Assembly (NCBI GenBank): GCA_964291215.2 | Contig: OZ219790.1 | Coordinates: forward strand, 2,464,001-2,528,000 | Direction of reading: 5' to 3' | Length of the DNA: 64,000 bases | DNA from: Alphaproteobacteria bacterium | GTDB lineage: Bacteria; Pseudomonadota; Alphaproteobacteria; MPNO01; UBA830 | In this document: positions 14,957-64,000 of the stretch, piece by piece | Numbering within the stretch: the first letter of the stretch is position 1 | Layout: each line of letters starts with the position of its first letter | Made by a program: the position numbers and the translations under genes | Notes under the pieces: model-generated | Databases searched by the model: none | What the model saw: the letters and a program-made list of their open reading frames with translations, nothing else | What the model was told of the DNA's origin: nothing

Positions 14957-16421
14957 GTATCTACTCACCCCTTGTTGGGTTCTGATTGGCCGTAGTGCTC
15001 GTTGATGATGTCTGCGGCTTTTCCGTCGAGGGCGATCCGGGTGGCGACGAGTGGGTTGTAGCCGAGTGCGGCCATGGAGGTGAGGTAGCTTGAGCCCCGG
15101 CACCATGCTTTTGCGTGGAGCGGAAGCATCCGGACACCTTGACCTTTGCCATCCTGATCTTCTGTTCTCCGGCATTGTTGGTGAAGCTGACGTTGGGGTC
15201 GTCTGTGAAGCGCAGGTTTTCGTGTTTCACGAGACGTTCGTACAGGTTGTGCGCGTCGGACTTGCGTCCACGTTTTCCTTTCGTCGGGATGTCGGGCAGT
15301 TCCCTGGCGCCCTGATGGTGCGGTAGCGCCCGGCGTCGTTCAGGGTTTTGGATGCGCTCTTGTTGATCTTGTGGCAGACCTCGCGGAGCAGGCTCTTCAT
15401 AAGTCGCGCGGTAGCCTCGACGACAAAGGTCAGTTCGCGCAGCAGGTGGCTACCGCACAGCTGGTGGCTACACTGGCCCATGTACGAGGCCCAGGACGCC
15501 CTTGTAACACGGGCCGATCTCTTGCTTGCGGTGCGGGAACTTGCACGTCAGGGTCCCACGACATGGAGCCACTTGCTGTTGATCCGAAATCATCGACATC
15601 GGGCGTTGCAGGAGGTGCGCCACGGCGGCCTCCTCCCATGACGCATCGTGAAAGCATAGCCGAGGCCTCGGAGAGCTTGATGCCGGAGATCGACTGCACG
15701 AACGCGACGGCGCAGGGACAGCATTTGGGCGACCAGCAGGTTGATGACGAGGGCCTGAATGCCGATGCCGTACTGCACGGGATGTTGTCGGGGAACCGGG
15801 CCTTGCACTTCGGGCATTCCTCGGCGCGGCGCTCGACGACCTCGAACACGATGTCGTGCGGCGCTCCCGATCGACGGGGCCGTCGATGTCAGCGCCGCAG
15901 GCGTCGCAGGCCGCAACCGTTTCCTCGACGATGGTCTTGCGCAGGTTGTCGCCCATCTGCCGGTTCAGCTTCGGGCCCTTGCCGTTGCTCCCGGCACGCT
16001 CTTGTCCGTCTGTGACGGCGGCAGACCGGAGTTCCGGCTCGTGCGTAGTCTTCTCCAGAAGGACGACGATGAGGATGTCGAAGACGCGGATCACGGCATC
16101 TTCCGCCACCTTGCCGGCAGCGCCGCGATCTTGGCCGCTTCGAACTCCTCGCGCGCCGCCCGTCGCCATCACCCGGCCTTGCGCTTCATCAGCGCGCCGC
16201 CTCCGAGATGCGTTTCCACATACAGATCATGCGGAGGCTGGAGCCCCGGAAGCAGCTGGCACAGCCCGCTCGTCGCCTTCGATCCAAAGTAGCCCACTGG
16301 CGGTCCCCGTCGTTCTCGATTACCACCACTAAACGAATCGGCCTGCAGTGTCAAATCTCCACGAAAACCCGTTCGTTACTCTACCCCGACATCAAGCCGG
16401 AACCAGGGGGTGAGCAGTTAC
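14957..16421 (-). mobile_element. IS66 family A copy 1 (truncated MTase plus degenerate tnpC), intron-free
   Basis: TIRs GTAACTGCTCACCCC / GTATCTACTCACCCC; perfect 8-bp TSD TCTGATAC (14949-14956, 16422-16429); CGSHLLREL and FTNNAGEQKIRM.KVK.SGCFRS motifs. Confidence 0.95.
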
Positions 16422-29471: not shown

Positions 29472-30949
29472 CCGACGTCAGCTTCACCAACAATGCCGGA
29501 GAACAGAAGATCAGGATGGCAAAGCTCAAGGTGTCCGGATGCTTCCGCTCCACGCAAAAGCTTGGTGCCAAGCTACCTCACCTCCATAGCCGCACTCGGC
29601 TACAACCCACTCGTCGCCACCCAGATCGCCCTCGACGGAAAAGCCGCAGACATCATCAACGAGCACTACGACCAATCAGAACCCAACTAGGGGTGAGTAG
29701 ATACGATCAATTTATTTTAGCGAACGCCCTTAGGGCGCCGCCATGTCGAACATCCTTCCTCTTCCGGCCCGCAAGCGGGCTGTCCGTCGGGGGCCTCCCG
29801 GAGACGATGCCAGAGGTCTTTCCCGGTGAGCCTTCCGGCGACGCCGCACGATGCGCTGTTCCGGGCGCTGATCTCCGAGCCGGCCCGCGCCGCTTCGCTG
29901 CTCGCGGAGTACCTGCCGCCGGAGGTGGCCGCCCTCCTCGACCCCGAGGCCCCGCCCGAGGCGGTCGAGGGCAGCTTCGTCGACGAGGACGCCGCGCGGA
30001 CCCAGTGCGACGTACTCTTCCGGGTCAGGCTGAGAAGCGGCCACGAGGCGCGCCTCTATGTGTTGCTCGAACACAAGAGCCGCGTCGATGCTGACACGCC
30101 ACTCCAGCTCCTGAAATACATGGTCAACATCTGGCGCCGCGAGATCGAGAATGGCGGTGCCGGGGACAGGTTGCCGACGATCATCCCGCTGGTCTTCTAC
30201 CATGGCCGGGGCCGTTGGACGGCGCCGCTCTCGGTGCCGGGGATGATAGACGCGCCCGGGGAGTTGGAGCCGTTCGTCAGGGAGTTTGCCTATGTGGTGC
30301 ACGACCTTGGCGAGATTGCGCCAGACCGGCTGTCGGCCTCACCCGAGGTGCGTTCTGGCGCTCAGGGTCGTTCATGCCGAGGAGATACCGCCCGATCTTC
30401 TCGACGAGATGACGGGCAGGGTGATCTTACGCTAAATTCTGTCTGATTTTTCAAGGCAGTACCTGGGCTTTGCGGGGTCGCGGGTTGGTGCGGGAGATTT
30501 TTTTACAGTTTTCGCTGGCTTTCCTGCACTGAAGTTGTCATGGTGCGGGGATGTCGGTTCACAAGCACTTCGCATCCTGTCCGATTCACGTCGCAGCTCC
30601 GGAAGGGTCTGTCCGAGCATCCATGTTTCTTGGCAAGGTTTTTGCGGGTGTCTGTGGTGATGTTTTCTGTGGTTGTCCACAAGCGGTGTGGGATTTGCTC
30701 TGCGAGCGAGGCGACATGAAGCTTGTGGTCCCAGCGGCGGGTTGCCGTCCATTGGTCACGTGAACGCGGCTACCTTGCCGTCCCCGGGCACGTGACCGTC
30801 CGGGTTCCAGGTGTCCCAAGGCGGTTCGGTCTCCTTGATGTCGGCCTCGACGATGATCTGCAGACATTCTTCCCAAGTCGTGTCGTAGAGGGAGACTGTC
30901 GAGACAGTCCCGATCGCGCTCTCGGCAGGGCCGTGTCTCCTTCGCTCAC

Positions 30950-31693: not shown

Positions 31694-32313
31694 CGTCCCT
31701 TGCTCCTCCCCTTACGATGATACGGGTTCAAACCCAAGTATCCAGCGAGGGACGTCAAGGGAGGTTGCCACACTCGGACACGGCCCTGTCAAGGTCGAAA
31801 CGGCAACCTCCGCGGAGATCGTTTGACCCCCTGTGCGTGTTCGCTCAGGGGAGCGGAATCTCTCTGCAACCATAGCTCTCCCACAGATCCACATTTTCCC
31901 GCCCCCAACTGCTGTGGATGATTTCATCATCAAGGGGACAAAACCTGGTCATATAAGGTTGAGGTTCGCGAAGCCTGAGGAGCGTCCGCTGCGTTGATGG
32001 ACGACTATCTCGGGTTTCGCTGTCTGGCGGGGCTGCGCCATGTTGCGTCCTTCAGGGGGCAGTGGTCTGGCCGGGGCCTTCAAGTGCCGCGGCCGGTGGC
32101 TGGAAGCCGGAGCAGCAGGGCTTGATCTGACAACACGCGACTGCTTGCGGCGCCGCGAACGTTTCCGAACCTTGCCTCCTTCTTTCGTAACTACCCAGGT
32201 ACCCTGCCAAGTGTGAGAGCTTGCTGATTTTGTTCGCCGTGTCGCTGCTCTCGGCCTTGACTGCATAGGCGCGCGCGCCTATGGGTTGCCCTCTCGCATG
32301 GGAGGAGCGGCTG

Positions 32314-32973
32314 GTGGGGTATTTCGGATCGAAGGCGACGACGGGTCTGAGCCAGGCGCTGATTGCGCTGATGCCGCCGCACTCTGTCTATATCGAGAGT
32401 CACCTGGGGGGCGGTGCGCTGATGAAGCGCAAGCCTGCTGCCGTGCGCTCGATCGGGATCGACCTCGATGAGCGGGCGCTTGAGGCCTTTGGCTGCGACT
32501 ACCCGGTGGAGTTGGTGCATGGCTGCGCCCACTCCTTTCTGGCGTCGTTTGCGTTTCTGGGCCCGGAGCTGGTCTACAGCGATCCGCCCTATCTGCACGC
32601 GACCCGGCGTTCGTCGCAGCGCTACCGCTTCGAGTATGCGGAGGCCGACCACGTCGCGCTGCTTGAGCTGCTCAAGGGTCTGCCCTGCCAGGTGATGGTC
32701 TCGGGCCACCCGTCTGCGCTCTATGACGACCTGCTGTCGGGCTGGCGCCGGCTGGCGCTGCAGGTGACGACCCAGGCCCGGGTGCGGACCGAGGTGGTGT
32801 GGTTCAACTTCGCGCCCGACCGGGTGCACTGGGCGCGCTTCGCCGGCCGGAACTTCACCGACCGCCAGCGCATCAAGCGCAAGGCGGCCAACTGGGGCCG
32901 GCTCTACGAGGCCATGCCGGCGGGCGAACGCCTGGCGGTGCTGGCCGCGATCATGGCCGGCGAGGTCCCGTGA
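32314..32973 (+). CDS. Dam-like (D12 class, alpha-group) N6-adenine DNA methyltransferase, intact
   Basis: GTG start after GGAGGAG; YFGSK, SAM-binding ESHLGGG, IGIDLD, catalytic DPPY, VMVSG, RTEVVWFNF. Confidence 0.9.
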   Translation: MGYFGSKATTGLSQALIALMPPHSVYIESHLGGGALMKRKPAAVRSIGIDLDERALEAFGCDYPVELVHGCAHSFLASFAFLGPELVYSDPPYLHATRRSSQRYRFEYAEADHVALLELLKGLPCQVMVSGHPSALYDDLLSGWRRLALQVTTQARVRTEVVWFNFAPDRVHWARFAGRNFTDRQRIKRKAANWGRLYEAMPAGERLAVLAAIMAGEVP

Positions 32974-33041
32974 CGGTGGCGCGAGGACCTCGCCGGCCAC
33001 GACGAGGCTTTTGCGTGCCTGCAGGACCTTTTCACCCCACA

Positions 33042-34447
33042 ATGCCTGGCGATGACGGTCATCAAAGCCATCCGGGCCAGGGGCTGCTGCGCCTGAGCGC
33101 GGCGCTGGTCAGGGAGAACGACGCGCTGGAGCGGGAGAACGCCCACTTGCGCGAGCGGATTGCCGAACTCGAGCGCAGTGCCGCGCTCGACAGCACCACC
33201 AGCTCCCGGTCGCCGGCCAGCGACGGTCTGAAGAAGAAGAGCGGACCCCAGCGCACCCGGAGCGGCACGTCCGACAGGCGGCGGCCAGCCACAAGGGAAC
33301 CACTCTGGAGCGGACCGCGACGCCCGACCACGTCGTCGATCATGATCCCTGCGCCTGTGCGGGCTGCGGCGCGCCGCTGTCGGCCGCTGAGCGTCACCGA
33401 GCCCCCGTCTGCCGGCAGGTCTTCGATGTGCCGCAGCCCCTTGAGGTCACCGAGCACCGCTGCCTCTGTGCCGCCTGCGGCACCGTGACGACAGCCGTCT
33501 TCCCGAACGGCGCCCCGGTCCAGTACGGGCCGCGTATCACCGCGTGGGGGACCTACCTGCTGCACGCGCAGTTCATTCCGGAGAAGCGCGTCGCCGAAGT
33601 CATGAGCGACCTCTTCGCGGTCAGGCTCTCAACCGCCACCATCGCCGCCATGGGCAGACGCACCGCCCGGCGCTTCGAGGGCTTCCTCGACCGTGTCGGC
33701 GAGATCATCCGCACCGCGGCCCCGGTCAAACACCTCGACGAGACCGGCATCCGCATCGCCGCCCGGACCCAATGGCTCCACGTACTGTGCACCCCGTTGC
33801 TGACCATCCTGCGCATCGCCGCCGGGCGCAGCCACATCGACGAGAAGCTCAACGGCATCGTCATCCATGACGACTACGCCACCTACTTCGCTCTCCAAGG
33901 CGTGCGCCACGGGGCCTGCAATGCCCATCACCTGCGCGAACTCCAAGCCCTGATCGAGATCGAGAACTGGGCAGCCACCACGCACCCGCTCCTCAGCCGT
34001 GCCAACAGAGCCGCCCGCTTCGCCCGCAAGAATGACCGCGACCTGCCCGCTTCACTGGTGGCCCGCATCTCCCGAGCCTGGGACCGCATCCTTGAGCAGG
34101 CCATCGCCTCTCACGAAGAGATGGCGCCCCTCCAGAGCGGAAAGCACGGACGACAAAAGCGCCGCATCGGTCACAACCTCGCCCTCCGGCTCCAGAAATA
34201 CAAGGAGGGCTGCCTGCGCTTCCTCACCGACCCGAGAACCCCCTTCTCGAACAACCAGGCCGAGCGCGACCTCCGCATGGGCAAGCTGCGCCAGAAAATC
34301 TCGGGCGGCTTCCGATCAATGCAAGGCGCCCGCGACTTCGCCAGCCTGCGTTCCGTCATCGCAACAGCCCGAAAGCAACGCTGGAATGTCCTCGAAACCC
34401 TGGCGCATCCCGATCCCATGCAGCTGATCCCGAGACTGCGCCTCTGA
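33042..34447 (+). pseudogene. tnpC: IS66 TnpC (ISBst12-type, no tnpA/tnpB), frameshifted near 5' end
   Basis: SSRSPASDG, QYGPR, HLDETG, IHDDY, CNAHHLREL, FSNNQAERDLR..K.KISGGFRS; two frames. Confidence 0.9.
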
Positions 34448-34798
34448 AATCCCCCGCCGCTCGCCTCCGCGTCCGCGGCAGCAGACCGGAAGCTTCAGTC
34501 CATAACCCGTGGCTGATCGCCGGAAGCAGACCTGGGCAGTTACCTTCTTTCTTGCGACGCGGCGGCTGGCCGACGATTGGGCCTACGGCCACCAGGTGGC
34601 GGAGACGTTCTGCGATCCGGCGCGTTTTGCGGGCACAAGGCGGCGGGCTGGCGTGCACTGAGCCGGACCAAGGGGTTTGCCCGCGGGCGCTACACCGACC
34701 CCCATGGCAAGGAGATTTTCGTTGTGCGGCGCGACGGCTGCTGTCGCAGGCGCTGCGGTAGCGCCGCCTGCCTCCTCGCTCCCCGGGGTTCCGAGGTA

Positions 34799-35733
34799 AT
34801 GCGTTCGCTGCACGAAGAGTTGACGGCGATCGAGGACTTCCGCCGCGCAGGAAGCACACGGTGTGCTCACGTTCTCGCCGAGCTTGCGAACATGAAAGGC
34901 AGCTGCGCAGTTTGCGCGGTCGCTGTCTCAGGACGAACTCGAGGCCATCGGCGGAACCCGAGGACGGAGCTGCGCGAGCCGCCCTCCAAGGCGACCCTCC
35001 ACAGGGCAGTCGATCGACCCCGAGGCGCTCGAGGATGTGCTCGGCCGCGGGCTCGCCCGGGCGCTTGCCGCCGACGGCAAGCGCATCCGCGGCGCCAACC
35101 GCAACGGCCACCACGAGACCGTGGCTCTCACGCCTCCGGCGCACCCTTCGCGCTGTTGAATTTCGACGACGGTGAGCTGGCGGCCACCTCCTCGAGCGCA
35201 CCGATGTCCGCGGCAAGGTGATCACCCGCACGACGCCGGCAGCGCTGATCACCCGGCGCTGCGGCGCAGACTATGTCTTCTCGGTCAAAGGCAATGCGTC
35301 CGAAACCTTCGACATCCTCGACGGCATCGACTGGGAGCCAGCGGCCGCTTCAAGGAAGAGTAAGGCCCGCCTCGAGCAGCGCGTGCCGCTCAAGGGCTTG
35401 ATCAACCACCCCGGCCAGATCGCCCGCATCAAGCGCTGCCGCGAACCGCTGGGAAAGAGCGCCAGCGGCGCAGCGAGCGGCAACGACTGTACATCATCAC
35501 CTCGCTCGATGCGCAACACGCGTCGCCAGAGGAACTGCTGCGGCCGCGGGCCGTGGAAAACATGAACCACCGAGACTGCGTCTTCGGCGAAGACGCCTGC
35601 CTGACCCGCAAACCGCGCCAGCCTCAACAACATCGCGCTCGCGGTGATCTTCGCCAACCGACGCGAGAGCCTCGCCGAAACACGGCTGCAGCTCGACCGC
35701 CGAGAAGCCGTCGCAGCTCTGATTCGGCCCTGA
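34799..35733 (+). pseudogene. ISAs1 transposase, frameshifted
   Basis: PPSKATLHR, DGKRIRGANRNG, GADYVFSVKGN, ENMNHRDCVFGEDAC. Confidence 0.8.
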
Positions 35734-55267: not shown

Positions 55268-56245
55268 TTAGCCTTCTAACTGATAGTGCGCGCACACATT
55301 CTGACATTTCCAAGCGAGCATCGGCATTGTGGCGATCCGCGTTCGGATTTCCGGCGAAACATCAAGCAGATCAGCGTTGGCCTCGCCGCGATCCAAAACG
55401 CTGTCCAAGAATTCCTGCTCTGCCGTCGTCAGGTCAAACAGAAGCGCGAATCGCTCGCGACACAGCGCGATCGTCTCCTCGATCCATGCGTCGATCGCCC
55501 CCTTGCCGCCGAAATAGTCCCGCGGCAAACAGATTGTGAGCTTCTGACGAAGCTCCCGCGGGTCGCCCTTGATCGCGTCGATGGAAACGGTTCGCCAATC
55601 ACGGCGCGCGCAGGCGCCGAACGCCAGAAACGCGCCTTTGATGTTCTTCCAGTCGAGCCCCTCGATCGACAGGATACGCCGCGCGTCGAAGAGGTCGCGC
55701 GCGGCGTGGCGATCAAAAAGCGCAACGAGCTTGCCGGCGATAACCTCCTGAAGATTGATTACCAGCACGTCCCTCGCATGCATGTCCCCGAGCGGGACCG
55801 ACGACATACGAGCGGCGCCAAACAAAGGTTGACGCGCCATGTAGTTCACGTCGAGCTCCAATGTCGCATTTCCACCGAGCGCCGAGGCAAAGCGCATGAT
55901 CCACTTGCCGCCGGCATGCTCATCCGGCTTTCGGCGAATATCGTATCCTTGGGAGGCAAGGAGCCGGTTGAGAGCGGCCTCGACATCTGGCCGCTCAGTC
56001 TCCATGGCCGCACGGTCGAGCGCACCGACATAGTTGAGGTCGATGTCGACCGATAAACGATCGAGGCCGAGATGAAAGACATTGAGCGCCGTGCCGCCCT
56101 TGAGCACGAGTCGCTCACTCAGAACTCGGTCACTCGCGATTTCCTGAAGAATGTCGAGGAGGCGCATCACCTTTTCGAGGGAGCCTGCCTGATAGCCGGT
56201 CTCGCCGACGATGCGCTGTAGGGTCTGGATCGAGGGCGCCGCCAT
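55268..56245 (-). CDS. abiEii: AbiEii-family nucleotidyltransferase toxin (type IV TA)
   Basis: LVLKGGTALN, RLSVDIDL, KL.AL..R...RDLFD. Confidence 0.88.
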   Translation of the reverse strand: MAAPSIQTLQRIVGETGYQAGSLEKVMRLLDILQEIASDRVLSERLVLKGGTALNVFHLGLDRLSVDIDLNYVGALDRAAMETERPDVEAALNRLLASQGYDIRRKPDEHAGGKWIMRFASALGGNATLELDVNYMARQPLFGAARMSSVPLGDMHARDVLVINLQEVIAGKLVALFDRHAARDLFDARRILSIEGLDWKNIKGAFLAFGACARRDWRTVSIDAIKGDPRELRQKLTICLPRDYFGGKGAIDAWIEETIALCRERFALLFDLTTAEQEFLDSVLDRGEANADLLDVSPEIRTRIATMPMLAWKCQNVCAHYQLEG

Positions 56246-63186: not shown

Positions 63187-64000
63187 TCAACACGGTTGCA
63201 AAGAAGTCACGGCATGTTCAAGGGCTCCCGGCAGCCGCGGATCCAGGGTGATCGTCTCCTGCTCAAGCCACAGTCCCCGGCGCTGCAGGTCCTGCACGAG
63301 GCTGGGCACCCCAGAGAGATCAAGGTCATCGGGCCACGGCTTGCGTTGTGCCCGGTCCGGCAGCCATTCCCGCCAGAAATCCGGCACCGTCCATTGAAGC
63401 CGGGGGTAGCGCTGCCGGAGGGACCCCACGATCCGGGTTCCCTCGGGATCCAGATCGCCGAAATGAACTATGGGAACGCCCTCAAGCTGGTCCAGAATCC
63501 GCACGGCCGCGGCGGTGTTCCATCCCGGGACGTGAACGACCATCCAGTCCGGCGGCGCCGGGACGTCCATATAGGGGCCAAGGTTCTCAACGGTCAGAAC
63601 CGCACGCGGGCGGTCCCCGGCGAGTCGGGTGCCGTCCCGGAGCGCCCTTTCGTTCAGCGCCACCTCGCCCGCGACTCCAACGAGCAGGGACGCTGCCACC
63701 CGACAGGAGGTGGTCTCGAGAACCAAGCCCCGGTTCGGACGAAGCCGCGCGATGCCGTCATTCGTGATATCGATGCCCTCGAGGGCCGAGCGGCGCTCGC
63801 CGGTGAACCCGGCCTTCGAGTGCGGCCCGACCAGGGCGGCGGCCGTCTTGGTGTTCAAGCGTCCCGGCAGTGCCCCGGCCTGGGAGGCCCGATCCCGGTC
63901 CCGGAGGCGCTTCCATCCCTCGTGTGTCACCGGCAGGCCGGCCTGGACCAGCCGCTCCCGGGCGACGCGCCATTCGGGCCAGCGCCCGTCGAGCATGTCC
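63187..64000 (-). CDS. Wadjet JetD-like (DUF2220) Toprim protein, probably continues beyond the window
   Basis: VLTVENL, HFGDLDPEG..I, LEQE motifs. Confidence 0.75.
   Translation of the reverse strand, partial: DMLDGRWPEWRVARERLVQAGLPVTHEGWKRLRDRDRASQAGALPGRLNTKTAAALVGPHSKAGFTGERRSALEGIDITNDGIARLRPNRGLVLETTSCRVAASLLVGVAGEVALNERALRDGTRLAGDRPRAVLTVENLGPYMDVPAPPDWMVVHVPGWNTAAAVRILDQLEGVPIVHFGDLDPEGTRIVGSLRQRYPRLQWTVPDFWREWLPDRAQRKPWPDDLDLSGVPSLVQDLQRRGLWLEQETITLDPRLPGALEHAVTSLQPC

Follow-up and report, generated by a model that had tools for sequence, protein, structure and literature searches.

Members of the IS66 family of insertion sequences (ISs) are marked by terminal inverted repeats that start with GTAA and by an 8-bp target duplication; some of them, such as ISGst1 and ISGka4, carry tnpC without the tnpA and tnpB of classical three-gene elements, and these we take to be the ISBst12-type group. 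Elsewhere among ISs, IS10 and IS50 are regulated by host Dam, and in both of them sequestration of the ribosome-binding site (RBS) counters read-through transcription. Here we describe an IS66 element of 2,357 bp (32187-34543) in a 64,000-nt stretch of alphaproteobacterial DNA (the window, in whose positions all coordinates are given). It resembles the single-tnpC elements in its GTAA ends, its 8-bp duplication, the NF033517 and PF03050 matches of its TnpC and the absence of tnpA and tnpB, and differs from them in that tnpC is broken and is preceded by a promoter and an open reading frame (ORF) with the fold of a DNA methyltransferase (MTase). The only tested homologue of this ORF is Upf31 of the IncP-1β plasmids pBP136 and R751. 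According to the accessible part of its report (PMC11997246), Upf31 lowers the activity of the promoter that drives it from 4.76 XylE units to 0.09, this autorepression requires the C-terminal aromatic residues F185 and W198, and no methylation was detected by GATC digests or by SMRT (single-molecule real-time) sequencing; its authors propose, without demonstration, that it binds the CAGCATCG inverted repeats of IncP-1β. Two other systems offer partial parallels, as far as the available portions of the preprints describe them. In IS91 the small upstream ORF orf121 overlaps the transposase gene tnpA, shares its promoter and exerts negative control on transposition (bioRxiv 2025.01.24.634351), but Orf121 and the IS91 transposase class are unrelated to those considered here, and the abstract does not present Orf121 as a methylase. 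The CfrBI methylase turns down the promoter of its own gene by way of a single site there (bioRxiv 2025.12.04.692298), but it has a restriction partner and methylation has been demonstrated, whereas the ORF of our element has no nuclease partner.

We favour, with moderate confidence, the view that the element carries a portable cassette, composed of a promoter and an Upf31-family gene, whose product is a putative autorepressor that would throttle tnpC. The ORF aligns with pBP136 Upf31 from end to end, at 44% identity over 215 aa (E = 2e-62), and the two proteins agree in the succession of their motifs and in their C-terminal helices; F181 and W194 of the ORF align with F185 and W198 of Upf31. 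A motif I of the type that binds S-adenosylmethionine and a DPPY tetrapeptide on a Rossmann MTase fold, the features by which N6-adenine DNA MTases are recognized, are all found in the ORF: motif X (GSK) is accompanied by motif I (ESHLGGG, aa 28-34) and motif IV (DPPY, aa 90-93; 32581-32592). DPPY is kept in 120/120 close homologues and in 142/150 distant representatives, the core of motif I is invariant in the homologue alignment (A1), and the spacing from motif I to motif IV is 62-65 aa in all 120 homologues. The AlphaFold model (pLDDT 77) has its best structural matches in Dam, DpnM and T4 Dam (Z 16-17.5), enzymes of the D12 class (alpha-type) with which it shares the fold, the DPPY tetrapeptide and the succession of motifs X, I and IV; the superposition on Dam gives Z = 17.5 and a root-mean-square deviation of 2.3 over 147 residues. 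Because model residues 1-167 span Dam residues 8-270, with about 95 residues fewer between motifs I and IV, the target-recognition domain of Dam is absent. Unlike these enzymes, the ORF ends in two extra helices (aa 181-199 and 203-216) and lies far under the cut-off of the Dam family profile TIGR00571 (24.4 bits vs 114.85); none of the Pfam and NCBIfam profiles scores it above cut-off. On the evidence of sequence and structural model the ORF is thus not a Dam, having lost the target-recognition domain, but kin of Upf31, and the original prediction of a functional Dam-like methylase finds no support on this count or in the negative methylation assays of Upf31 that the available text reports. 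The top matches of a sequence search of the PDB (TPR-like designs) were judged spurious, with a DpnM match at E = 0.003, and a complex prediction for the ORF homodimer, with a score of 0.15, was counted neither for nor against dimerisation.

The control region of the gene also resembles that of upf31, with a TTGACA-type promoter and a palindrome of 5-10-5 geometry at the same position. In the window, 32257-32283 reads TTGACT-G-CATAG-N10-CTATG, so that the palindrome lies between the predicted -35 and -10. The promoter call rests on conservation; a strict sigma-70 scan gave no match. Among 70 distinct homologous promoters (from 78/80 metagenome loci) the half-site CATAG occurs in 67 and CTATG in 50, with conserved adenines and a variable spacer. 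There are 13 such palindromes in this genome, 12 of them in copies of this element. For comparison, perfect CATCG-N10-CGATG sites number 13 on pBP136, where the corresponding place in the upf31 promoter reads CATCG-N10-CGAGA; the sites of the IS homologues thus share geometry and promoter position with those of pBP136 and differ by one base in the half-site. This change from CATCG to CATAG between protein clades bears on the repeat binding proposed for Upf31. Several CATAG-N10-CTATG sites, some of them intragenic, are present in the plasmid and viral homologues L082, L077, L080 and L187-L191, an arrangement that echoes the repeat clusters of IncP-1β, and CATAG-type sites adjoin the gene in 3/6 plasmid or phage loci. 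A DNA-only search of viral contigs with the promoter yielded 7 matches, of which 4 precede a homologous gene and 3 precede unrelated genes; at those 4 loci no transposase is evident 3' of the homologue and a second operator lies upstream. We searched a further 400 genomes from the phylum for the promoter pattern and obtained no match.

Downstream of the -35, the Shine-Dalgarno sequence would be covered by a predicted RNA hairpin of -19 kcal/mol (z = -2.5, with 3/200 shuffles as good), or of -5.8 kcal/mol when the RNA is taken from the transcription start, which is itself predicted. The median z of the hairpin over 77 promoters is -2.6 (mononucleotide shuffles), and three of five measures of pairing and covariation beat 500/500 shuffles; the signal also exceeds all slid controls. 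RBS sequestration is known for IS200, as the accessible part of the relevant paper describes (PMC4513863). A Dam/GATC control of the kind seen in IS10 was considered and rejected, as the promoter and both ends of the element are without GATC.

These observations are set within an element whose anatomy (ends, target duplication and gene overlap) is real. The original prediction had described GTAA ends enclosed by a perfect 8-bp duplication and only two genes between them, and both points hold: the ends are identical at 13 of 14 bp, and between the left end and tnpC there is the 219-aa ORF alone (ESHLGGG, DPPY and its GGAGGAG), with neither tnpA nor tnpB. The insertion target is a repeated relic (32100-32186 and 34552-35300 in the window) of which 27 uninterrupted copies, or empty sites, exist elsewhere in the genome; the boundaries of the element are fixed by these copies, of which the six inspected carry the duplicated 8-mer once. 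Insertion in repeated DNA is likewise seen for 3/11 other copies of the element. The part of tnpC that is still open matches NF033517 with 231.8 bits (cut-off 180; E = 1e-68) and PF03050 with E = 3e-37. The coordinates of all these features are collected in Table 1.

Table 1. Features of the IS66 element and its control region, in positions of the window.
Feature	Positions	Strand	Remarks
Left target-site duplication, 8 bp, CTTCTTTC	32179..32186	no strand	perfect match on both sides
Left terminal inverted repeat, 14 bp, GTAACTACCCAGGT	32187..32200	+	relatives share the same end
Predicted -35, TTGACT	32257..32262	+	in homologues (70 distinct promoters), TTGACA in 97%
Palindromic operator-like site CATAG-N10-CTATG, candidate	32264..32283	no strand	between -35 and -10; called from conservation
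Predicted -10, TATGGG	32280..32285	+	17 nt after -35; metagenome consensus TATGCT
Predicted RNA hairpin over the Shine-Dalgarno sequence	32284..32312	+	5' arm begins upstream of the predicted transcription start
Shine-Dalgarno sequence, GGAGGAG	32301..32307	+	6 nt 5' of the GTG start
Upf31-family MTase-fold ORF, 219 aa	32314..32973	+	motifs X, I and IV; C-terminal helices in aa 181-216
IS66 tnpC	32970..34447	+	start and ORF stop overlap in GTGA; compared with intact 513-aa relatives, ten deletions of 5-9 nt
C-terminal 339 codons of tnpC, still open, DDE region	33428..34447	+	NF033517 and PF03050 matches
Right terminal inverted repeat, GTAACTGCCCAGGT	34530..34543	-	read on the minus strand (34543-34530)
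Right target-site duplication, 8 bp, CTTCTTTC	34544..34551	no strand	

We take as established that the palindrome and the promoter are conserved, the homology to Upf31 including its C-terminal helices, the ends and target duplication of the element and the overlap of the two genes. In the mechanism that we propose to connect them, one mRNA from the TTGAC promoter would span the ORF and tnpC, with translational coupling between the two; the protein would dimerise through its C-terminal helices, and the dimer would block RNA polymerase at the CATAG-N10-CTATG site in its own promoter. No separate promoter is evident for tnpC, which would therefore be subject to repression at the common one. Entry into a new cell would then be followed by a burst of transposase and by shutdown, and every copy that has this operator would be held down in trans; the hairpin at the RBS may form mainly on read-through transcripts that come from outside promoters. 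Control of transposition, which figured among the roles originally predicted for the ORF, is in our judgment its likeliest function. If this is true, a widespread environmental set of ISs controls its transposase by means of a plasmid-borrowed regulator built on a methylase fold, and many annotations of 'DNA adenine methylase' beside IS66 are misleading. No description of the IS-borne form was found in the literature, with ISfinder, REBASE and most subscription journals outside the search.

Several points weigh against the autorepressor. The ORF, which unlike upf31 sits inside IS ends, overlaps a transposase gene and has no KorB partner, is known from sequence alone, as are the other IS-borne members of the family. 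A pure repressor need not keep its catalytic motifs as strictly as is seen here for DPPY. Overlap with the -10 could account for the conservation of the CTATG half-site, and the palindrome as a whole could be a back-to-back promoter; the -10 of the window, moreover, is without the final T. In 2/6 plasmid or phage loci there is no CATAG-type site, and in the clade of the sister family described below the ORF is intact in some copies, yet the palindrome has decayed, with TCCAG or TGCAG in place of CATAG. As for the hairpin, 2/5 covariation measures fail to beat the shuffles, and RNAalifold, run on a mixed alignment, returned no consensus hairpin.

The strict conservation of the catalytic site can be accounted for if the protein is a very narrow N6-adenine methylase that targets its own long operator, so that the methylation state, briefly lost after replication or transfer, sets the activity of the promoter. 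We regard this self-methylation switch as rather unlikely; in outcome it overlaps with repression by simple binding, and the difference lies in the chemistry. Besides the retention of DPPY and of the motif I core, it is favoured by the close match of the fold to Dam, by the conserved adenines in the operator and by the precedent of the CfrBI methylase, which according to the part of the preprint at hand acts at its own promoter (bioRxiv 2025.12.04.692298). The design of the SMRT test of Upf31 also leaves room for it: by the available description (PMC11997246) upf31 was expressed from a vector whose insert began 15 nt 5' of the ATG and did not include the promoter, and the upf31 ORF contains no perfect site, so that a rare long target could have escaped. 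By chance alone, E. coli should contain only about four such 10-base sites, which is insufficient for motif calling. Against it stand the negative results of Upf31 both in GATC digests and in SMRT sequencing, the finding that the mutations abolishing repression map to the C-terminal domain, at a distance from the active site (both from the accessible part of PMC11997246), and the missing target-recognition domain. In its most far-reaching form, a helix-dimerised methylase without recognition domain that modifies only its own 20-bp operator would be a portable epigenetic switch of transposition that makes the supply of transposase depend on replication and copy number without host Dam; IS66 elements would have acquired it repeatedly from plasmids, and both the IncP-1β repeat clusters and the negative SMRT result would be explained. 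To this too we give less credit than to a repressor, and hold it to be doubtful.

Methylation of a broader kind, as with Hia5 or Hin1523 of Mu-like prophages, would instead make the gene an anti-restriction passenger that shields the DNA of the element or of its carrier. The homologues with less than 60% identity occur as solitary genes, in 196 plasmid records (134 of them conjugative) and 95 phage records, loss of the recognition domain could mean relaxed specificity, and Hia5-type enzymes are related to Dam and nearly non-specific (PMC3299994, as far as its accessible text goes). However, by the same source Hia5 retains a recognition region of about 90 residues, broad methylation would have stood out in the SMRT test of Upf31 as its report partially describes it, and both the conserved operator and the coupling to tnpC are left unexplained. 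Protection from restriction, another of the roles originally suggested, is therefore poorly supported, and we consider it quite improbable.

The distribution of the cassette was studied in other genomes, through 76 loci from the best 80 of at least 531 matches, and in metagenomes, through 80 loci. The 76 genome loci come from 13 assemblies, most of them alphaproteobacterial, with a Dehalococcoidia bin and a Tectimicrobiota bin besides; paired ends and a perfect 8-bp duplication are present at 46 loci, 13 have no end pair, and the remainder have ends that lack a perfect duplication, or spurious pairs. Intact elements are present in other genomes, and the 4-nt overlap at the start of tnpC recurs in 9/10 translated elements. 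A downstream ORF of at least 60 aa follows the gene in 67/80 metagenome loci, and of the 58 longest of these, which were scanned, 50 encode IS66 TnpC; since tnpC in the metagenome clade mostly begins a few to 30 nt past the ORF stop, the overlap is not universal. Pairs of MTase gene and tnpC inside shared ends are thus found in many genomes, as the original prediction anticipated, and form one conserved unit.

On these elements the ORF is under purifying selection, about as strong as that on TnpC: the ratio of nonsynonymous to synonymous substitution rates (dN/dS) is 0.08-0.32 for the ORF (19/20 pairs computable) and 0.10-0.38 for TnpC. The ORFs are 60-80% identical even where the TnpCs share only 23-35%, and in an 18-row tree the cassette-bearing TnpCs split into three groups. 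A topology that joins the two main cassette groups as one clade, as opposed to four cassette-less TnpCs, L168 and L118, is rejected by the approximately unbiased test (p-AU = 0.0002). The cassette is therefore on separate TnpC lineages, a result with which both repeated gain and repeated loss are compatible. It is also found without transposase on plasmids and viral contigs, and IS66 adjoins the gene in 0/6 annotated plasmid or phage loci. The nearest plasmid matches of TnpC are single-gene IS66 elements such as ISGst1 and ISGka4.

Such mobility raises the question of whether the cassette was captured merely for its promoter, with a protein that regulates only itself and brings no benefit in transposition control. 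The closest plasmid relatives of TnpC work without the cassette (4/4 loci checked), 219 left ends in this genome belong to a sister family that has lost the catalytic core, and the module is patchy, occurring in 5/401 genomes of the class. Nevertheless, the whole ORF is under the purifying selection just described, and in the absence of an evident separate promoter for tnpC, repression would extend to the transposase; we find such hitch-hiking improbable, and continue to favour autorepression as a probable brake on tnpC.

Three further observations concern the surroundings and architecture of these genes. A transposase that we presume to be of the IS1634 family (with DUF4277 in L130) is encoded 3' of the gene in L123 and L130, where it is probably a secondary insertion because tnpC of L107-L109 is broken up by an ORF of this type; its recurrence inside or just after these elements suggests that they are targeted. 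An IS1380 lies 200 bp 3' of the gene in L079. On these loci, carriage of the cassette by transposase families other than IS66 is doubtful. Four frames (P0161, P0170, P0193 and P0223) join an Upf31-like domain to an integrase SAM-like domain, a C5 methylase or MerR, and may be either real fusions or read-through calls.

The element of the window does not stand alone: the genome holds 12 full-length, near-identical copies, 11 of them with a perfect 8-bp duplication. All 12 share the broken tnpC, while the ORF is intact in 10 (one of the others has a 55-nt deletion, the other a 1,330-nt insertion). The contrast originally noted between an intact ORF and a frameshifted tnpC is confirmed. Relative to intact relatives, tnpC has deletions of 8, 7, 6, 6, 5, 5, 6, 9, 6 and 6 nt; those of 8 and 7 nt cancel, and the two of 5 nt leave a frameshift, net at about 33279-33287. 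The first value depends on a 17-nt MAFFT gap at the gene junction, which was split by eye into 9 nt of ORF tail and 8 nt of tnpC; the 8-nt piece is seen separately in the public run X3. Because independent public contigs carry the same deletions, and the deleted form is present without gaps in runs X1 and X2, assembly artefacts are ruled out as their cause; that they are real and recent follows from a sister version in X3, in which 488 nt compared with the window show 37 nt of gaps but only 2 substitutions. A programmed frameshift that would rescue tnpC was also discounted, as no slippery heptamer could be seen by eye at 33279-33300, and the empty-site joints in X1-X3 were discarded as a sign of polymorphism, the target itself being repeated. 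No full-length TnpC was found in the top 45 of the 401 matching frames of at least 150 aa in this genome. None of the 12 copies is autonomous. Either a helper absent from the assembly mobilised them, or gene conversion made them alike once they had inserted; gene conversion is pointed to by element positions 774 and 1363, which the copies mix in all four combinations.

An ORF that survives beside a decaying transposase gene could signify that the host keeps it as an orphan methylase or repressor, for example one that silences related elements. The ORF body has no fixed deletion against ten in tnpC (Poisson P = 0.015, rising to 0.07 when the 9-nt deletion in the ORF tail is counted), and most copies retain it. 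The catalytic core of tnpC, however, escaped deletions about as well as the ORF: nine of the ten fall in the first third of the gene and one, in-frame, in the DDE core (binomial P = 0.0008). On the branch of the window the ORF is not more constrained than tnpC, with dN/dS = 0.37 for the ORF vs 0.21 for the DDE core (33428-34447), and fresh lesions among the 12 copies strike the two genes in proportion to their length. Together with the loss of the ORF in 2/12 copies, this makes domestication highly improbable. As for the sparing of the DDE core itself, a truncated product or gene conversion are both possible.

In all, 222 loci of the genome match the ORF, and only 12 are intact. Most of the others belong to a second MTase-IS66 family (family B) of about 1.5 kb, whose methylase is gutted and whose tnpC is riddled with lesions. 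Its ends are asymmetric (left GTAACTGCTCAC, right GTATCTACTCAC); a right end was found for 169 of the 219 left ends and a perfect 8-bp duplication for 109, and in 217/219 there is no DPPY within 900 nt. Six left ends lie in the window, at 16421(-), 25611(+), 46293(+), 53700(+), 58680(-) and 62655(-). In all six of these relics the methylase match is limited to the first ~50 aa, so that intactness is not general to these methylase genes. That the family without core and with a degenerate palindrome has reached about 200 copies, as opposed to 12, fits a brake on transposition, although this is one comparison between two broken families.

The small-deletion load of the IS relics of this genome is unusually high: 83 copies of family B have 14.5 gap openings per kb vs 25 substitutions per kb. 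Nearby host genes (e.g. ada and dapB) appear intact. The claim that the other mobile ORFs of the window are broken stands in part, as judged from a rough check in which 115 of 161 long frames were scanned: the Mutator, reverse transcriptase and IS66 matches are partial, but a YhgA/Rpn frame covers 166/203 profile positions. This YhgA/Rpn-like frame (29721-30443), an AbiEii-like frame (55271-56245) and a frame with a JetD_C domain (63190-63999) lie amid the IS relics. Another repeated element of the genome has ATAG-N10-CTAT near its end (contig C2 of G000, at 1551638, 1654564 and 2469387).

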